From a virus (lineage: Duplodnaviria; Caudoviricetes), in the IMG/VR virus record IMGVR_UViG_3300028840_005437, positions 1-52,138 of that record: a DNA stretch of 52,138 bases; one strand, given 5' to 3'. The position numbers and the translations under genes were made by a program. Below the pieces are notes generated by a model. The model made no database searches, was not told the DNA's origin, and was given only the letters and a program-made list of their open reading frames with translations. Each line of letters begins with the position of its first letter. Position 1 is the stretch's first letter. Positions 3,800 through 25,340 of this stretch are shown here, piece after piece.

Positions 3800-3872
3800 C
3801 TCCCCAAGCAAGACTCGAACTTGCGACTTCATGGTTAACAGCCATGCGCTCTACCAACTGAACTATTGGGGA
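3800..3872 (-). tRNA. tRNA-Asn(GTT)
   Basis: TCCCCAATAGTTCAGTTGGTAGAGCGCATGGCTGTTAACCATGAAGTCGCAAGTTCGAGTCTTGCTTGGGGAG: canonical cloverleaf; followed by TCA, so CCA is not encoded. Confidence 0.95.
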
Positions 3873-4229: not shown

Positions 4230-4850
4230 CTAAACTTCTATGAACGTTATAGCGTTAGCCTCCGACAAAACGGAATCCACTTCGGAGTCGAACCTGTCGT
4301 TCTTTTCCTCCAATTCCTCAATGGTTTTCCTGAGATTCAAGGGATCGACTAATTTTAATTCATTGGCTTCAATATAAGGCTTCGTCACGTTTATAACGTC
4401 TTTGTCCGTCAGCTTCACGTTGTCTTTCGCTAATGCGGCTTCAGCTATCTGCAATGCCTGCTGAGCGACAGCCTTATTATGATTTTCAAGCCACGAGCTT
4501 ACTTCGGCGTAACGCTTTTTCAACGTTTTCAGAAAGGCGTTTCTTTGTTCGGTCATATGCTTTCTGTGAATGGCGTCCGCGATCGACATCTTCTCTCCAT
4601 TGATGTCGACGATGGTTTCAGTGTTGGCTTTCGCGATAGCGGACTTAATAGCCGTCCTCCTGTCAAACAAGTCATTCGCCTTTTGAAAATCGGCACAGGC
4701 CTTTTTAATGAAGTCGTTTTCCTCATGCCGGTTGTTGACGAGTTTTTTAATCTGCTTCCAGCCTATCGGCTCGATATTCACGTTAAGCTTGGCCATCTTT
4801 TTATCTATAAGCCTCAATTCTCCCAATGCTCTATGCAATGTCATCTCCAT
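4230..4850 (-). CDS. DIP1984/septicolysin-like long helical-hairpin protein
   Basis: MTLHRALGELRLIDKK..IKSAIAKANTETIVDINGEKMSIADAI..LVDPL..EVDSVLSEANAITFIEV, recognised as this family's pattern. Confidence 0.7.
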   Translation of the reverse strand: MEMTLHRALGELRLIDKKMAKLNVNIEPIGWKQIKKLVNNRHEENDFIKKACADFQKANDLFDRRTAIKSAIAKANTETIVDINGEKMSIADAIHRKHMTEQRNAFLKTLKKRYAEVSSWLENHNKAVAQQALQIAEAALAKDNVKLTDKDVINVTKPYIEANELKLVDPLNLRKTIEELEEKNDRFDSEVDSVLSEANAITFIEV

Positions 4851-5520: not shown

Positions 5521-5745
5521 TTATCCGAGCCAACTTTTGAATTCATTCTTGCAGGCATCATAATCATAGCCTAATTCCGCCATCTTGTTTCTTATCGCCA
5601 GCAAAATTTTATCGTCGGCAGTAGCCGTCAAATCAAAAGAAACACTCAAATCCTCATGCTCATATAAGCCGTTTTCGCCTTCACAACCAAGCGCTTCCAT
5701 GATAGCGTTCATTTTGGAATAATCTCTGTTATCATTTGGTTTCAT
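5521..5745 (-). CDS. Hypothetical protein
   Basis: ORF with AAGGAG RBS. Confidence 0.6.
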   Translation of the reverse strand: MKPNDNRDYSKMNAIMEALGCEGENGLYEHEDLSVSFDLTATADDKILLAIRNKMAELGYDYDACKNEFKSWLG

Positions 5746-6502: not shown

Positions 6503-6913
6503 TTAGTCAGGTTTGTTTTTCAGCCTTTTCTTATAATCCATAAGCCCCCCGTTAACAAGTTCTCTCGGAGGCCGCGGAAAGTCGCCGTCGACAGGTCTCC
6601 ATAGATGAAGACAGGCGGGGTGAAAATTCACATACTCGGACTTGGGAGGATGAATCTGCATAACCGCGTCCTCATCGTCCCAAAAAAGTGATTTGACCTT
6701 GCGCATGATTTTCCATGACGGAGGATTTTTCGGAATCCTGGCGCCGGGATTGGCGGCGGTCACGGAGACATGCTCCCACCCCAGAATATCGCTCGCTACG
6801 CATAATACCGACATTCCCGAATACGAGAATATAAAGGCTCCGTTGTTTCCCGCGCTCTCGCCTGTCGCCAGACTTCCGGTTTCGATTCTGTATTTTTCGG
6901 GGACTTTAAACAT
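6503..6913 (-). CDS. Conserved phage hypothetical protein
   Basis: GWEHVSV..PSW..M..VK.LFW..QIHPPKSEYVN.HP.CLHLWRP signature. Confidence 0.8.
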   Translation of the reverse strand: MFKVPEKYRIETGSLATGESAGNNGAFIFSYSGMSVLCVASDILGWEHVSVTAANPGARIPKNPPSWKIMRKVKSLFWDDEDAVMQIHPPKSEYVNFHPACLHLWRPVDGDFPRPPRELVNGGLMDYKKRLKNKPD

Positions 6914-22110: not shown

Positions 22111-22554
22111 TTATTCAAAATTAGTCAGATTCCAAAGATCGTAATAAAACGGCTCTCCGTCAATGGTTATTAAAGCCTCGAGCGTTCCGTTTGAAATGGC
22201 GGTCTCGACCGTCACGTCTTTTGCCAGTCCGTCCTCGATTAGCCATTCGAGAGATTCCTCGATGTAGCTTTTGGCGTCGTTTTTCGTCGCGTCGTCCAAC
22301 CTGGCCTGCTTCAGAAGCCAAAGCTTGGAGCCGGCCTCGAAGCCCGGAAACGCGGATACGAGATTCCCTATCCAGCCGCTTCGATATTCGGGCGTAGGCA
22401 CTTCTCCTTCCGTCGCTCTCCTTCTTCCCGCCAGAGACATCGTCACGGTGGTCCCGAATCCGTCGTCGACTTGCAGGTCTCCGTTTTCGTCCAGGTTTAC
22501 GTCGAAAACTCCCTCGTCGTCCCGGATTAATTTCACGTCTACTGGTTGAGTCAT
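22111..22554 (-). CDS. Mu gp46-like baseplate protein
   Basis: GWIG..GSKLWLLKQA..AKSYIEESLEWLIEDG. Confidence 0.9.
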   Translation of the reverse strand: MTQPVDVKLIRDDEGVFDVNLDENGDLQVDDGFGTTVTMSLAGRRRATEGEVPTPEYRSGWIGNLVSAFPGFEAGSKLWLLKQARLDDATKNDAKSYIEESLEWLIEDGLAKDVTVETAISNGTLEALITIDGEPFYYDLWNLTNFE

Positions 22555-22564
22555 GATTGTTCTC

Positions 22565-22619
22565 GTCTAACCAATCGCTTCACCGGACGCTACCGCGCCG
22601 GTGAGCTCAGTCGTTAGAC
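22565..22619 (+). other. attC site 1 (type A, 55 bp)
   Basis: GTCTAAC-caatc-GCT(T)CACCGG(A)CGC-tacc-GCGCCGGTGAGC-tcagtc-GTTAGAC, two extrahelical bases. Confidence 0.9.
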
Positions 22620-22641
22620 CTTAACTTAATTGGAGAAAATT

Positions 22642-22881
22642 ATGTTTTTAAAATTATACACTCGCAGCATCGTTGAAATGGACCATATTGAAATTGAAGA
22701 TGCTCATATGGCAGTAGGACAAACTTTAATTCATGAGAAAAATGAATATATTATTTTCGAGATCACTCATTCCATAATAGGCAAACAAACAATTACTACG
22801 GTTCATTGCAGTGAAGGAACATATCTTGATCGCCTTAAAGTTTTACTCAGCAATGATTGGATCGCGGAAAGCGGCATTTAA
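22642..22881 (+). CDS. Cassette 1 ORF, hypothetical 79 aa
   Basis: GGAG RBS then ATG at 22642 just after attC1. Confidence 0.6.
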   Translation: MFLKLYTRSIVEMDHIEIEDAHMAVGQTLIHEKNEYIIFEITHSIIGKQTITTVHCSEGTYLDRLKVLLSNDWIAESGI

Positions 22882-23034
22882 TTGCTTCTCCGCGTTCTCT
22901 TTGAGAGTTTTTATTTGTTTCGTTAAATCTTCTTCTTGATGGCCTTCTTTATTTAACTCCATTAAACTCAGGGCTAGATAGTCTGATGCCTTATGTAAAT
23001 TCGTGATAATTTTTGTTTTGCTTTGTGCGTTCAT
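22843..23034 (-). CDS. Cassette 1 antisense ORF, helical 63 aa
   Basis: ORF convergent with 22642-22881 inside the same cassette. Confidence 0.4.
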   Translation of the reverse strand: MNAQSKTKIITNLHKASDYLALSLMELNKEGHQEEDLTKQIKTLKENAEKQLNAAFRDPIIAE

Positions 23035-23051
23035 GGCTATTTTATTGCTTA

Positions 23052-23122
23052 GTCTAACAAATTGCTAGACGCGAACATCACGCCGCTTCGCGGCTCATGT
23101 CGCGTCAGCTCCGTCGTTAGAT
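23052..23122 (+). other. attC site 2 (type B, 71 bp)
   Basis: GTCTAAC..GCT(A)GACGCGA(A)CAT..GCCGC-TTC-GCGGC..ATGTCGCGTCAGC..GTTAGAT. Confidence 0.9.
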
Positions 23123-23155
23123 AGCAATCCAAAAAATATTAATAATAGAGGAATT

Positions 23156-23548
23156 ATGAGAAAAAGAATAAAAGCGGTATTCATAAAAATAGTAGCTAAT
23201 TTTACCTGGGTCTCCATGCTTATTATTTCTTTTTTTTTAGTTTTCGCTTCACTCATATATTCCTTCCATATAAAAGATTTCGATATATTCGCGAGTTCAG
23301 GAGCAATTGTTACTATTGCAGGCATCTATCTTTCTTTTTGGCCTACCATAAATTTAACCCCCCAAAATGAAACCGAATTAATGGCTCATAAACTCGCATT
23401 TATGCGTTTCTGGCCCAAAAAAGGCACCGATGAATATGATCAGCTTCTTCAAGAAGCAAGACAAATACTTAGAAATGAAAGAATTGGTTTTGGAATGTCT
23501 ATAATTGGTACTTTTATTTGGGCTTATGGTGGTTATATTACTATCTAA
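23156..23548 (+). CDS. Cassette 2 ORF, multi-TM membrane protein, 130 aa
   Basis: About three hydrophobic helices; stop TAA lies inside the R'' box (ATCTAAC) of attC3, as is typical of cassettes. Confidence 0.75.
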   Translation: MRKRIKAVFIKIVANFTWVSMLIISFFLVFASLIYSFHIKDFDIFASSGAIVTIAGIYLSFWPTINLTPQNETELMAHKLAFMRFWPKKGTDEYDQLLQEARQILRNERIGFGMSIIGTFIWAYGGYITI

Positions 23549-23597
23549 CAAATCGCTTCACCGGACGCTACCGCGCCGGTGAGCTCAGTCGTTAGAC
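23543..23597 (+). other. attC site 3 (type A)
   Basis: Near-identical to attC1. Confidence 0.9.
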
Positions 23598-23619
23598 CTT
23601 AACTTAATTGGAGAAAATT

Positions 23620-23829
23620 ATGAATTTAGAAAACAAAATACGCCAAGATGTTGAAAGAGATTTAAGGCGTAAAATAGGATATTTAAAATGTCAGGTGCAT
23701 TTAGAGGCGCCCCGAATCAACTTCAAAAATATGATTGGCAATAAAGTCAATTTTAATGTTTCCGGTTGCTGCCCTGAGTTTGACGACATCTTAAAAAAAA
23801 AACTTATTAGTCTTGGCTATCGCTTTTAA
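23620..23829 (+). CDS. Cassette 3 ORF, hypothetical 69 aa
   Basis: Same leader and RBS as cassette 1; C..H...CC.EF motif. Confidence 0.6.
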   Translation: MNLENKIRQDVERDLRRKIGYLKCQVHLEAPRINFKNMIGNKVNFNVSGCCPEFDDILKKKLISLGYRF

Positions 23830-23983
23830 AGTCTATGCCTACTTCAGCGGTTCGCAGGCAAATACTGTAATAAAGCCAATTTTTATTTTCCTCATCTCCT
23901 TTAACCTCTGATTCGGAAGCTACTATTTCCGTGTTTTCGTCATTCAGCAAATCTATTAAAAATTGCTTATCTATTACGCCCAT
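23807..23983 (-). CDS. Cassette 3 antisense ORF, 58 aa
   Basis: Manual translation MGVIDKQFLIDLLNDENTEIVASESEVKG...; GAGG RBS. Confidence 0.4.
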   Translation of the reverse strand: MGVIDKQFLIDLLNDENTEIVASESEVKGDEENKNWLYYSICLRTAEVGIDFKSDSQD

Positions 23984-24206
23984 AAATATTTAATCCTCAT
24001 ATTACCAGCAAATTCGAGGAGTTACCAAAAAGCGAAATCGCTTCCCAGGGAAAGGAGGAATTTTCTTGCTTCATTCATCTGCGCGACGCTAAGTACTACA
24101 TCCCTGTTAATAATGGTGTGCCTAATAATAATACGGTCTTTGTTCGTCTTTCTCTTGAAAAAATACATGGGTTCTCTCTTGGAACATTAGAAGTTAGAGA
24201 ATAACG

Positions 24207-24277
24207 GCCTAACAAATCGCTAGACGCGAACATCACGCCGCTTCGCGGCTCATGTCGCGTCAGCTCCGTCGTTAGAT
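24207..24277 (+). other. attC site 4 (type B)
   Basis: Near-identical to attC2. Confidence 0.9.
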
Positions 24278-24297
24278 ATTTAAATTCGGAGAAAATT

Positions 24298-24747
24298 ATG
24301 AACGAATATAAAAAACTATTGAAGCAGTTCTCGGATCATCCGATCACAATAAATGATATTGAAAACAATGGATTCGATATTAACTCCAAAGAATTCGTAA
24401 CTTCTTTCCAATGGCTTGAGTCAGAGCAATTAATAACGCCACTATCTGAGTCCACTTGCGGGCTTAGATTATATGACAATGGTAGTCCCCTTTGGGTTCC
24501 AGTTGAGCTTGTCATTACCAAAAAAGGAAAAGACTATCTTGATCCGCCTAAACTTGAGAGTGATAAGCTGAAAAACTGGCTGTTTAAACCACTTATTGTT
24601 GCAATAATTACATCTCTGGTTTCTGGCGCCATTGGTTTCTATATAGGAAAAAAATTGCAACAGAACAAATTATGCCAACAAATAAGCCACCCGCAAAAGA
24701 AGCTGCCCAAACCACATGAATTAATTCAGAACACATCAAATCCATAA
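24298..24747 (+). CDS. Cassette 4 ORF: winged-helix-like N-terminus plus C-terminal TM, 149 aa
   Basis: WLESEQLI..LVITKKGKDYL then TM LIVAIITSLVSGAIGFYIG; GGAG RBS. Confidence 0.7.
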   Translation: MNEYKKLLKQFSDHPITINDIENNGFDINSKEFVTSFQWLESEQLITPLSESTCGLRLYDNGSPLWVPVELVITKKGKDYLDPPKLESDKLKNWLFKPLIVAIITSLVSGAIGFYIGKKLQQNKLCQQISHPQKKLPKPHELIQNTSNP

Positions 24748-24775
24748 TGCTGAAATCATCAATATATTAATGTAT

Positions 24776-24832
24776 ATCTAACAAGTCGCTAGAGCCGACG
24801 CCTACCGGCGCGGCTGAACTCAATCGTTAATC
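24776..24832 (+). other. attC site 5 (divergent, 57 bp)
   Basis: ATCTAAC-aagtc-GCTAGAGCCG(A)CGCC-tacc-GGCGCGGCTGAAC-tcaatc-GTTAATC. Confidence 0.75.
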
Positions 24833-24881
24833 ATGCATATTTTATTCCGTTTACGCCGGGATACGGCGTTAAGAGCGCAAT

Positions 24882-25340
24882 CTATGGAGCCGGAGGACCG
24901 GACAAGCCCGCTCCCGTCGTCACTCCCGTGTGAACATGCGTAATCAGGTCCGAAATAACCAAAGTTCCTCCCTTCCAAACCTCTATCGTTCCTTGGTCCG
25001 TGAATTTCAAATAAGTCGGAACGGTAGCCGAGAAAGCTCCGACGACCACCTCTTTGGAATTGTGCGCCGGAATGGTCTTGGGATCGTAGGCGATTCCGAC
25101 CTGATTCGAGCTTTCGCCCTGGACGTTGAACTTGACTCCCGACGCGCCGACCGGCGGCTTGGCCGCTAATCCGTAGGGACTCAGCAACTCCACGTATGAC
25201 GTCTTTCCCAATGCGTCGACCTGCGCGTCCGGGTATTCGCCGGCCTCATAGGGTTCCGATTCGGTCACTATAAGACGCTGAATCATCGTCATGATTTTGT
25301 TTTTCAAAGCCGCTAGAGCGGCCTCCACTATAGGCGTCAT
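24882..25340 (-). CDS. Baseplate spike (Mu gp45/gpV-like)
   Basis: PYGLAAKPP; C-terminal HxH motif THVHTGVTTG..SGPP. Confidence 0.9.
   Translation of the reverse strand: MTPIVEAALAALKNKIMTMIQRLIVTESEPYEAGEYPDAQVDALGKTSYVELLSPYGLAAKPPVGASGVKFNVQGESSNQVGIAYDPKTIPAHNSKEVVVGAFSATVPTYLKFTDQGTIEVWKGGTLVISDLITHVHTGVTTGAGLSGPPAP

Follow-up and report, generated by a model that had tools for sequence, protein, structure and literature searches.

The DNA analysed here, referred to as the window, is the whole of the IMG/VR virus record IMGVR_UViG_3300028840_005437, a linear sequence of 52,138 nt with an estimated completeness of about 89%. Between the gp46-like and gp45-like genes of its Mu-type baseplate operon lies an array of five imperfect hairpins, each resembling an integron attC site, together with the four gene cassettes that they bound. 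In bacteria, small adaptive genes, among them those for resistance and anti-phage functions, are captured and reshuffled mainly by integrons. Because five attC sites are found in 2.3 kb and no intI gene is found in the record, the locus is an attC cluster that has no integron integrase (CALIN) and not a complete integron. The term is defined by at least two clustered attC sites with no intI nearby (PMC9892861; bioRxiv 2024.07.02.601686).

The hairpins are located on the + strand at positions 22565–22619 (attC1, 55 nt), 23052–23122 (attC2, 71 nt), 23543–23597 (attC3, 55 nt), 24207–24277 (attC4, 71 nt) and 24776–24832 (attC5, 57 nt). Their R'' boxes read, in this order, GTCTAAC, GTCTAAC, ATCTAAC, GCCTAAC and ATCTAAC, and all five agree with RYYYAAC. 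The R' box is GTTAGAC in attC1 and attC3 and GTTAGAT in attC2 and attC4, in agreement with GTTRRRY, and is a non-canonical GTTAATC in attC5, so that four of the five sites follow the R' consensus. Both consensus strings agree with those quoted by Qi et al. 2023 (PMC9892861). Sites 1 and 3 (type A) and sites 2 and 4 (type B) form near-identical repeat pairs, with 95% identity over 88 nt and 99% over 70 nt, respectively, and the order of the sites, with attC5 as type C, is therefore A-B-A-B-C. An earlier description made from the letters of the DNA, here called the sequence-only reading, had already reported five hairpins of 55–71 bp in this order and the aberrant fifth R' box; a script run on the sequence gave the coordinates and motifs listed above.

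Both strands of each site were folded as DNA, and the folding energies were expressed as z-scores against shuffled sequences. Four of the five sites adopt, as single strands, a fold with a 7-bp R stem, an unpaired spacer of 5/6 nt, an L box of 3 bp, one bulged base and a stem rich in G+C; the bulged bases presumably lie on the arm that is canonical for strand choice. The z-scores are −4.4 for attC1 (bottom strand −16.7 kcal/mol), −3.4 for attC2, −3.9 for attC3 and −3.1 for attC4. By contrast with these four, attC5 (z −1.6) forms the inner stem alone and shows no R pairing, because its R' box is non-cognate and unable to pair with its own R''. The consensus fold computed by RNAalifold has 20 pairs, with compensatory changes in 4 of them.

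A covariance model, R1, was built from the five phage sites alone. Run over both strands of the 52-kb record with the filters off, R1 finds the five sites with scores of 81.6 (attC1), 68.7 (attC2), 83.6 (attC3), 68.6 (attC4) and 67.6 bits (attC5), and the next match in the record scores 12.1 bits (E = 1.3). Rfam holds no attC family and gave no match to the five hairpins. Among plasmids, the best BLAST place of attC5, a weak one (E = 5), is where a cassette of a class 1 integron has its 3' end; this integron contains intI1, aac(6')-Ib, blaIMP-45, gcu (a cassette of unknown function), blaOXA-1, catB3 and qacEdelta1/sul1. When R1 is applied to this 12-kb locus, its five best + strand matches are the 3' ends of all five cassettes, with scores of 47.9, 29.0, 27.6, 22.7 and 12.6 bits, four of them at E<1e-3 and one at E = 0.23. 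A model derived from the phage sites thus recognises bona fide class 1 integron attCs; this is the reciprocal of the attC-model check that the sequence-only reading had put forward, and it does not refute that reading.

The model was also compared with bacterial arrays at large. In a scan of 185,579 species genomes, the exact attC-flank pattern selected 31 loci, 19 of which match R1 at E<=1e-3; 8 of these hold at least two sites, and the largest array, on a Pseudorhodoferax contig, has seven sites at E<=1e-3. Since the pattern itself picked the first site of each locus, independent evidence comes from the additional sites. The genomic attCs come from many phyla and have only their flanks in common with the phage sites, their inner stems differing from those of types A, B and C. 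Of the five genomes whose sites are closest, a single one contains an IntI that exceeds the curated cut-off (372 bits), and three more have strong, split IntI-like matches. Since the closest attCs are spread over many phyla and only the flanks are shared, no host can be named from them. Two attC-like sites (700–763 and 1378–1474, with R1 scores of 54.1 and 37.4 bits) were also found on a contig labelled as the metagenome-assembled genome of a Halobacteriales archaeon, a bin that is possibly contaminated. Integrons reportedly occur in Archaea, and these two sites agree with that. The phage hairpins are assigned to the attC family because sequence, structure and position agree; as judged from these features, they are genuine attC sites that bound cassettes, and they are predicted to recombine.

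The four cassettes, measured from G|TT to G|TT, all lie on the + strand and span positions 22614–23116 (503 bp), 23117–23591 (475 bp), 23592–24271 (680 bp) and 24272–24826 (555 bp). Each contains a + strand open reading frame (ORF) with a strong ribosome-binding site followed by an attC of the same polarity. The ribosome-binding sequence GGAGAAAATTATG occurs in three of the four, cassette 4 included, and the TAA stop codon of orf2 sits within the R'' box of attC3. The first nine positions of each cassette (G and the next 8 nt) match the reverse complement of its own R'' at 7/9, 9/9, 7/9 and 9/9 positions for cassettes 1–4; the own R'' is the unique best of the five sites for cassettes 2 and 4, and is tied with others for cassettes 1 and 3. 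The sizes given in the sequence-only reading are reproduced exactly, and its claim that every cassette starts with the complement of its own R'' is borne out to the extent of these counts. The cassettes conform to the boundary rule of circular cassettes.

The cassette bodies have a G+C content of 32–35% (0.336 in cassette 1), as compared with 48.9% in the rest of the record, and positions 23001–24000 are the lowest-GC kilobase of the window. This composition points to a foreign origin. Cassettes 1 and 3 have their first 53 nt in common, though the encoded proteins are unrelated. The leader behind the crossover, with its ribosome-binding site and ATG, is identical in the two and belongs to an exact repeat of 72 nt (22573–22644 and 23551–23622) that extends across the crossover on both sides. 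These shared attC-plus-leader units suggest a single donor array with homogenised sites.

Neither an integrase nor the other parts of an integron platform accompany the cassettes. A scan with TIGR02249 over all 52,138 nt of the record, which is about 89% complete, gave no integron integrase and no tyrosine-recombinase candidate; the same model picks up ordinary tyrosine recombinases in 14 of 14 control genomes. The first element of the array is an attC at a distance of 10 nt from the start codon of gp46, so that no room is left for an attI or a Pc, and no sigma-70-like site was found on the + strand upstream of the first cassette. The absence of a visible intI and attI, noted in the sequence-only reading, is thus upheld within the record.

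The genes at either side of the array belong to the baseplate block. The gene gp46 (22111–22554, − strand) encodes a Mu gp46-like baseplate wedge protein (PF07409 GP46, 5e-19; phrog_180 baseplate wedge, 9.9e-22), and gp45 (24882–25340, − strand) a Mu gp45/GpV-like baseplate spike (PF06890, 2.6e-06) whose C-terminal Apex motif (PF18946) is intact at residues 132–151 of 152. The spacer from attC5 to the gp45 stop codon (24833–24881, 49 nt) contains a small 6-bp hairpin that folds no better than shuffled sequence (z −0.9). Baseplate_J (PF04865) follows gp46, and hub and tape-measure PHROGs lie upstream of gp45. The order gp45 (spike/V), gp46 (W-like) and gp47 (J) of the Mu-type baseplate module is therefore kept, as it is in six annotated phages, and the remaining genes of the block overlap or abut. 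Records matching gp46 number 27, and in all six annotated phages examined among the relatives gp45 and gp46 are separated by −4 to +4 nt, as compared with 2327 nt here. The array lies antisense between two genes that these relatives show to be otherwise adjacent, as first proposed from the sequence.

The array is physically continuous with the phage and is not an assembly chimera. Runs X1 and X2 contain 98% of the sampled words of the window, and runs X3 and X4 next to none. One independent contig, of 13,148 nt, runs from the phage to position 22602, 38 nt inside attC1, and a second, of 23,870 nt, runs from 24249 in attC4 through cassette 4, attC5 and the right junction into the phage. Both junctions are thus bridged at phage depth by independently built contigs, which answers the concern about a chimeric assembly raised in the sequence-only reading. 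Unique pieces have a depth of 24–30x, and the 72-nt type A and 60-nt type B repeats, for which two copies each are expected, have depths of 58x and 51x; no alternative joints were seen in the independent contigs. A phage depth of about 25x suggests that the array is tolerated in the baseplate operon.

The cassettes encode small proteins. Cassette 1 contains orf1a (22642–22881, + strand, 79 aa) and the convergent predicted ORF orf1b (22843–23034, − strand, 63 aa); cassette 2 contains orf2 (23156–23548, + strand, 130 aa), a helical membrane protein; cassette 3 contains orf3a (23620–23829, + strand, 69 aa), with a C-x2-H...CC motif, and the convergent predicted ORF orf3b (23807–23983, − strand, 58 aa); and cassette 4 contains orf4 (24298–24747, + strand, 149 aa), with a winged-helix-like N-terminal domain and one transmembrane segment. 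The seven candidate cargo ORFs gave no significant match in Pfam, PHROGs, PADLOC or NCBIfam, and therein none to the defence families of PADLOC; a tblastn search of the seven against 39 loci returned nothing below E = 0.09. Among 5.8 billion proteins orf1a matches only itself, orf4 likewise has no homologue except itself, and no similarity was detected between orf1a and orf3a or between orf1b and orf3b. Cassette 3 also holds a 48-aa reverse-strand ORF (24022–24168, − strand) that is co-directional with orf3b and 38 nt from it. The paired reverse ORFs recall the inverted toxin-antitoxin cassettes of chromosomal integrons; orf3b has no family match.

The product of orf2 has two long hydrophobic stretches, and its AlphaFold2 (AF2) model consists of four helices with a predicted local distance difference test (pLDDT) value of 73.8; a Foldseek search of this model against the Protein Data Bank (PDB) gave nothing at E<=0.001. 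Four homologues share 48–61% identity with it, and a metagenome scan with the family alignment yielded three loci, L047 (61%), L048 (53%) and L049 (28%). In L048, the homologue lies between two attC-like sites and a third site ends the next cassette; the sites score 12.9, 20.5 and 15.2 bits with R1, and each of the two cassettes agrees at its start with the reverse complement of the cassette's own R'' in 9 of 10 positions. This makes orf2 a member of a gene family that also occurs as a cassette in a second array, unrelated to that of the phage. No attC was found at L047 or L049. More remote relatives, with 28–29% identity and no attC nearby, are present in eight viral contigs (L050–L057) and retain the motifs FASSGA and IWAYGGY (L051, 3998–4441, and seven further loci). 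In L051 the gene has an integrase, a Bro-N protein and a D5-type primase-helicase around it, and is the sole gene of at least 100 aa on its strand within the inspected stretch; the context hints at an orf2-type accessory gene of small integrative elements.

For orf3a, nine distant homologues of about 66–87 aa (P0009–P0017) were obtained with E values from 1e-5 to 1e-3, and residues C24, H27, C50 and C51 are invariant in the family. The AF2 model (pLDDT 88) has a helix-strand-strand-helix fold. Neither a Foldseek search of the model against the PDB at E<=0.001 nor a comparison of the family profile with PDB sequences and Pfam returned any match, and the Atlas look-alikes are bacterial hypothetical proteins from Acidobacteriota, Myxococcota and Pseudomonadota, which serve as leads only. 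As judged from the model and the invariant residues, the family is probably a metal-binding module. The transmembrane segment of orf4 comprises residues 94–118, and its structural neighbours in the Atlas, DUF2513, YjcQ and PadR at TM scores of about 0.5, are again no more than a lead. With orf2 and orf4, the two membrane proteins that the sequence-only reading had listed among the payloads are both retained as predictions. The cargo consists of small accessory proteins of the moron type, two of them predicted to be membrane proteins and one to carry a Cys/His motif, and not of baseplate parts.

By gene content the phage is contractile-tailed. The record encodes an HK97-type capsid protein, prohead protease, portal and large terminase, a tail sheath and tape measure in addition to the baseplate block, a DnaD/O-like initiator with a DnaB helicase, an N6/N4 methylase and an SMC-like ATPase with a PD-(D/E)XK nuclease; a tRNA-Asn gene is also present. 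The capsid protein has at most 34% identity to that of any cultured phage, and gp46 at most 42%; the alignment of gp46 with its six cultured-phage homologues is strongly divergent. The phage is distant from cultured phages. A tail-fibre-family protein (4230–4850, − strand; phrog_1491, 1.2e-46) is encoded remote from the tail module, where its neighbours are the tRNA-Asn gene (3800–3872, − strand) and replication genes.

Searches for the array in other genomes were negative. The exact type A and type B stems occur in no other viral contig, and the array DNA matches none of 50,697 phage records. The attC-flank pattern selected three loci among viral contigs, all of which are false positives, either on reading or because they reach at most 19 bits with R1. 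One of them, L001, has intergenic clusters (about 4300–4480, 5560–5700 and 6600–6780) of direct and inverted CTAACAG / CTGTTAG copies beside small hairpins; at no more than 19 bits with R1 these are not attC, and they look like arrays of protein-binding motifs. The capsid was not found in 10 genomes with similar attCs, a result from incomplete genomes and a single query that is no evidence of absence.

The right end of the array bears on how the cassettes came to lie in the phage. Canonical attC sequence in attC5 ends at G24826|TT and is followed by TTAATC, which fits neither GTTRRRY nor the R'' of attC5; rightward, the sequence continues as TTAATCATGCAT.... IntI1-3 insert cassettes into chromosomes at attG sites of sequence 5'-GWT-3' (bioRxiv 10.1101/2022.09.11.507474), and the TTAATC at G24826|TT agrees with the G|WT crossover that is described there for recombination between attC and attG. 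An insertion made by an integrase is therefore favoured by the non-attC sequence that starts at the G|TT crossover, and the occurrence of the orf2 family as a cassette in another array lends indirect support to the action of an integrase. On balance, we lean towards the view that the locus is a genuine phage CALIN of four cassettes and five attCs that was built by IntI, with a right junction produced by recombination between an attC and a non-attC G|TT site. A bacterial integron integrase would have built the array and moved the cassettes, and would have recombined an attC with a non-attC G|TT site by the attC × attG route, which made at least the right junction. The insertion probably took place into phage DNA during the infection of an integron-bearing host. 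The array would since be passive cargo that has no integrase of its own, so that cassettes could be lost, gained or transferred only with IntI supplied in trans.

The two ends of the insert are also bracketed by a perfect 7-bp inverted repeat, CATGATT / AATCATG (22552–22558 and 24829–24835), the left arm of which includes the gp46 start codon. Removal of the array at G22559 and G24826 would leave the two arms around a central GTT. The repeat was noticed post hoc; an equal one is rare, at 8 of 5000, when only the nearest 15 nt are shuffled, but not when the shuffling takes in the wider flanks, where 338 of 5000 reach it.

Several observations weigh against an integrase-made insertion or against the evidence on which it is based. 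The attCs outnumber the cassettes by five to four: no cassette precedes attC1, which is placed 10 nt from the gp46 start and whose left edge is off the canonical G|TTRRRY crossover. Insertion of a single circle therefore fails to explain the left end, which fits either the illegitimate capture of an interior piece of an array or a subsequent deletion at the attC1 hairpin's base. As relatives have no spacer between gp45 and gp46, the 49 nt to the right of attC5 may be imported as well, which fits capture en bloc. The cassette ORFs are antisense to the late operon, and promoter-like sites are not enriched in the array (3, as compared with 7.3 ± 2.9 in shuffles); none of the runs listed for the DNA is an RNA run. 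No sibling phages were found among viral contigs by gp46 and Baseplate_J, and neither a host nor a donor of IntI was found in these searches. The contigs of X1 and X2 are identical in length and may be one data set, which may also be the source of the record, so that the evidence from bridging and depth is independent of the assembler and not of the sample. Finally, repeats A and B are each present in two copies, and the order of cassettes 1 and 3 can therefore not be fixed from 31-mer contigs.

Several of these points are accommodated if a piece of a bacterial array of the sedentary type was captured en bloc, as inert cargo, with no integrase ever acting on the phage; illegitimate or microhomology recombination, or template switching at the hairpins, would serve as routes, as for phage morons. 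A fifth attC gives the insert the look of an interior array fragment, the left edge departs from the crossover point, and the flanking 10 nt and 49 nt, which have no counterpart in the relatives, may have come with it. The duplicated A and B types and the common leader suggest one donor array with homogenised sites, and captured pieces of chromosomal integrons are described in Vibrio phages by Qi et al. 2023, in whose account illegitimate recombination is raised as a route (PMC9892861). However, the canonical end of attC5 falls exactly at G|TT and is followed by sequence other than GTTRRRY, and a random breakpoint would seldom fall there. The ends of the insert moreover coincide with the ends of attCs, with an offset of at most 10 nt at the left end and of 0 nt at the right, and no donor array with these stems was found in the 185,579 species genomes by the flank pattern, which required exact flanks. 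Capture en bloc is a real possibility, if a clearly minor one.

The sequence-only reading had further proposed that the phage borrows a host IntI to gain and shuffle accessory genes, such as those for superinfection exclusion or defence; the structural part of its interpretation holds, and these proposals are hypotheses. A more ambitious reading takes the gap between gp45 and gp46 as an integrase-less cassette platform at which a host IntI swaps cassettes, with the phage both benefiting from them and ferrying them between lineages. Were this so, sibling phages would carry different cassettes at the same site, and the cargo could include membrane proteins that exclude competing phages. Anti-phage cassettes occur in chromosomal integrons (bioRxiv 2024.07.02.601686) and make a role of the cargo in defence or exclusion plausible. 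We nevertheless regard the existence of such a platform as doubtful.

It is highly improbable that the hairpins are palindromes of the phage itself, such as terminators, regulatory hairpins or REP/MITE-like elements, that happen to resemble attC. An origin of this kind would be in keeping with a record that has no integrase, with the want of an Rfam family and with the grouping of four of the five hairpins into two repeat types. Yet R1 recovers the attCs of five class 1 integron cassettes and of arrays in many genomes, and no further copy of the hairpins is present in the phage; the units that they bound are low in GC and each bears an ORF of the canonical polarity, the own-R'' rule holds, and among the enclosed genes is orf2, whose homologue is a cassette elsewhere. 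That bacterial integron DNA was falsely joined into the phage contig can hardly be credited: the record is from a metagenome and the A and B repeats break a de Bruijn graph, so that the internal order reflects the repeat resolution of the assembler, but two false joins would have had to restore a colinear baseplate operon exactly between neighbouring genes, independent contigs cross both the left junction (38 nt into attC1) and the right one (by more than 500 nt), depth is uniform at 24–30x and about twofold for the two-copy repeats with no alternative joint, and records of the cargo proteins come from three contigs, of which the longest measures 56,070 nt.

CALINs in phages have precedents. 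A screen of 10,705 phage genomes yielded 17 CALINs, a number of which belong to virulent phages, together with 3 complete integrons and 1 In0 element; five of six phage attCs tested recombined with attI1 under IntI1, and phages were proposed as a route of cassette transfer (Qi et al. 2023, PMC9892861). Phage-borne CALINs, in virulent and temperate phages alike, and the recombination of phage attCs by IntI1 are thus already published, and the sequence-only reading overrated the novelty of the locus. In that publication, as far as its description of these elements goes, the phage CALINs are like the present one in having several attCs, co-oriented cassettes and no intI in a tailed phage, with functions mostly unknown, and it is likewise proposed that their mobility depends on an IntI of the host and that the phage serves as the vehicle of the cassettes (PMC9892861). 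By contrast, the array reported here is found in an uncultured metagenomic myovirus and has five sites as compared with two to three in the described examples (PMC9892861), has intact own-R'' boundaries and alternating duplicated attC types, and lies antisense inside an essential baseplate operon, a comparison made with the examples that the text of that paper describes out of its 17 CALINs (PMC9892861). The details that are new are the position in the baseplate operon, the junction at the integrase crossover, the alternating duplicated attC types and the cargo gene in a second array.

The locus also resembles three other known arrangements in part. Like chromosomal arrays of the sedentary type, it consists of repeats of an ORF followed by an attC, with attC flanks in common (CTAACAAATCGCT ... 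GCTC-GTCGTTAGA), and its cassettes are AT-rich, promoterless-looking, mostly of unknown function and in some cases carry reverse-strand ORFs; unlike them, it is a phage locus with no intI, attI or Pc and with four cassettes only, and its replicon is the phage. The inner stems within one homogeneous chromosomal array usually vary less than do types A, B and C of the phage. The right junction, in which the attC body and G are followed by TT and non-attC sequence outside any integron, is like that reported for attC × attG insertion, whereas the left junction has a complete attC in place of the target-G|TTRRRY-cassette arrangement, and the target is a phage and not a chromosome (bioRxiv 10.1101/2022.09.11.507474). 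Phage morons are likewise low-GC foreign genes between two conserved late genes and have no virion role, but the units described here carry the recombination sites of a bacterial gene-capture system, oppose the operon and split a gene pair that normally overlaps.

Evidence for phage-borne cassettes is recent and comes from few genomes, and the picture drawn by Qi et al. 2023 is left unchanged by the locus, which contributes an environmental-phage example of unusual clarity. The operon that contains the insertion is structural and essential, and the phage is nonetheless abundant in its sample. The array offers a concrete substrate for asking if infecting phage DNA is acted on by host integrases and if cassettes travel between hosts with phages.

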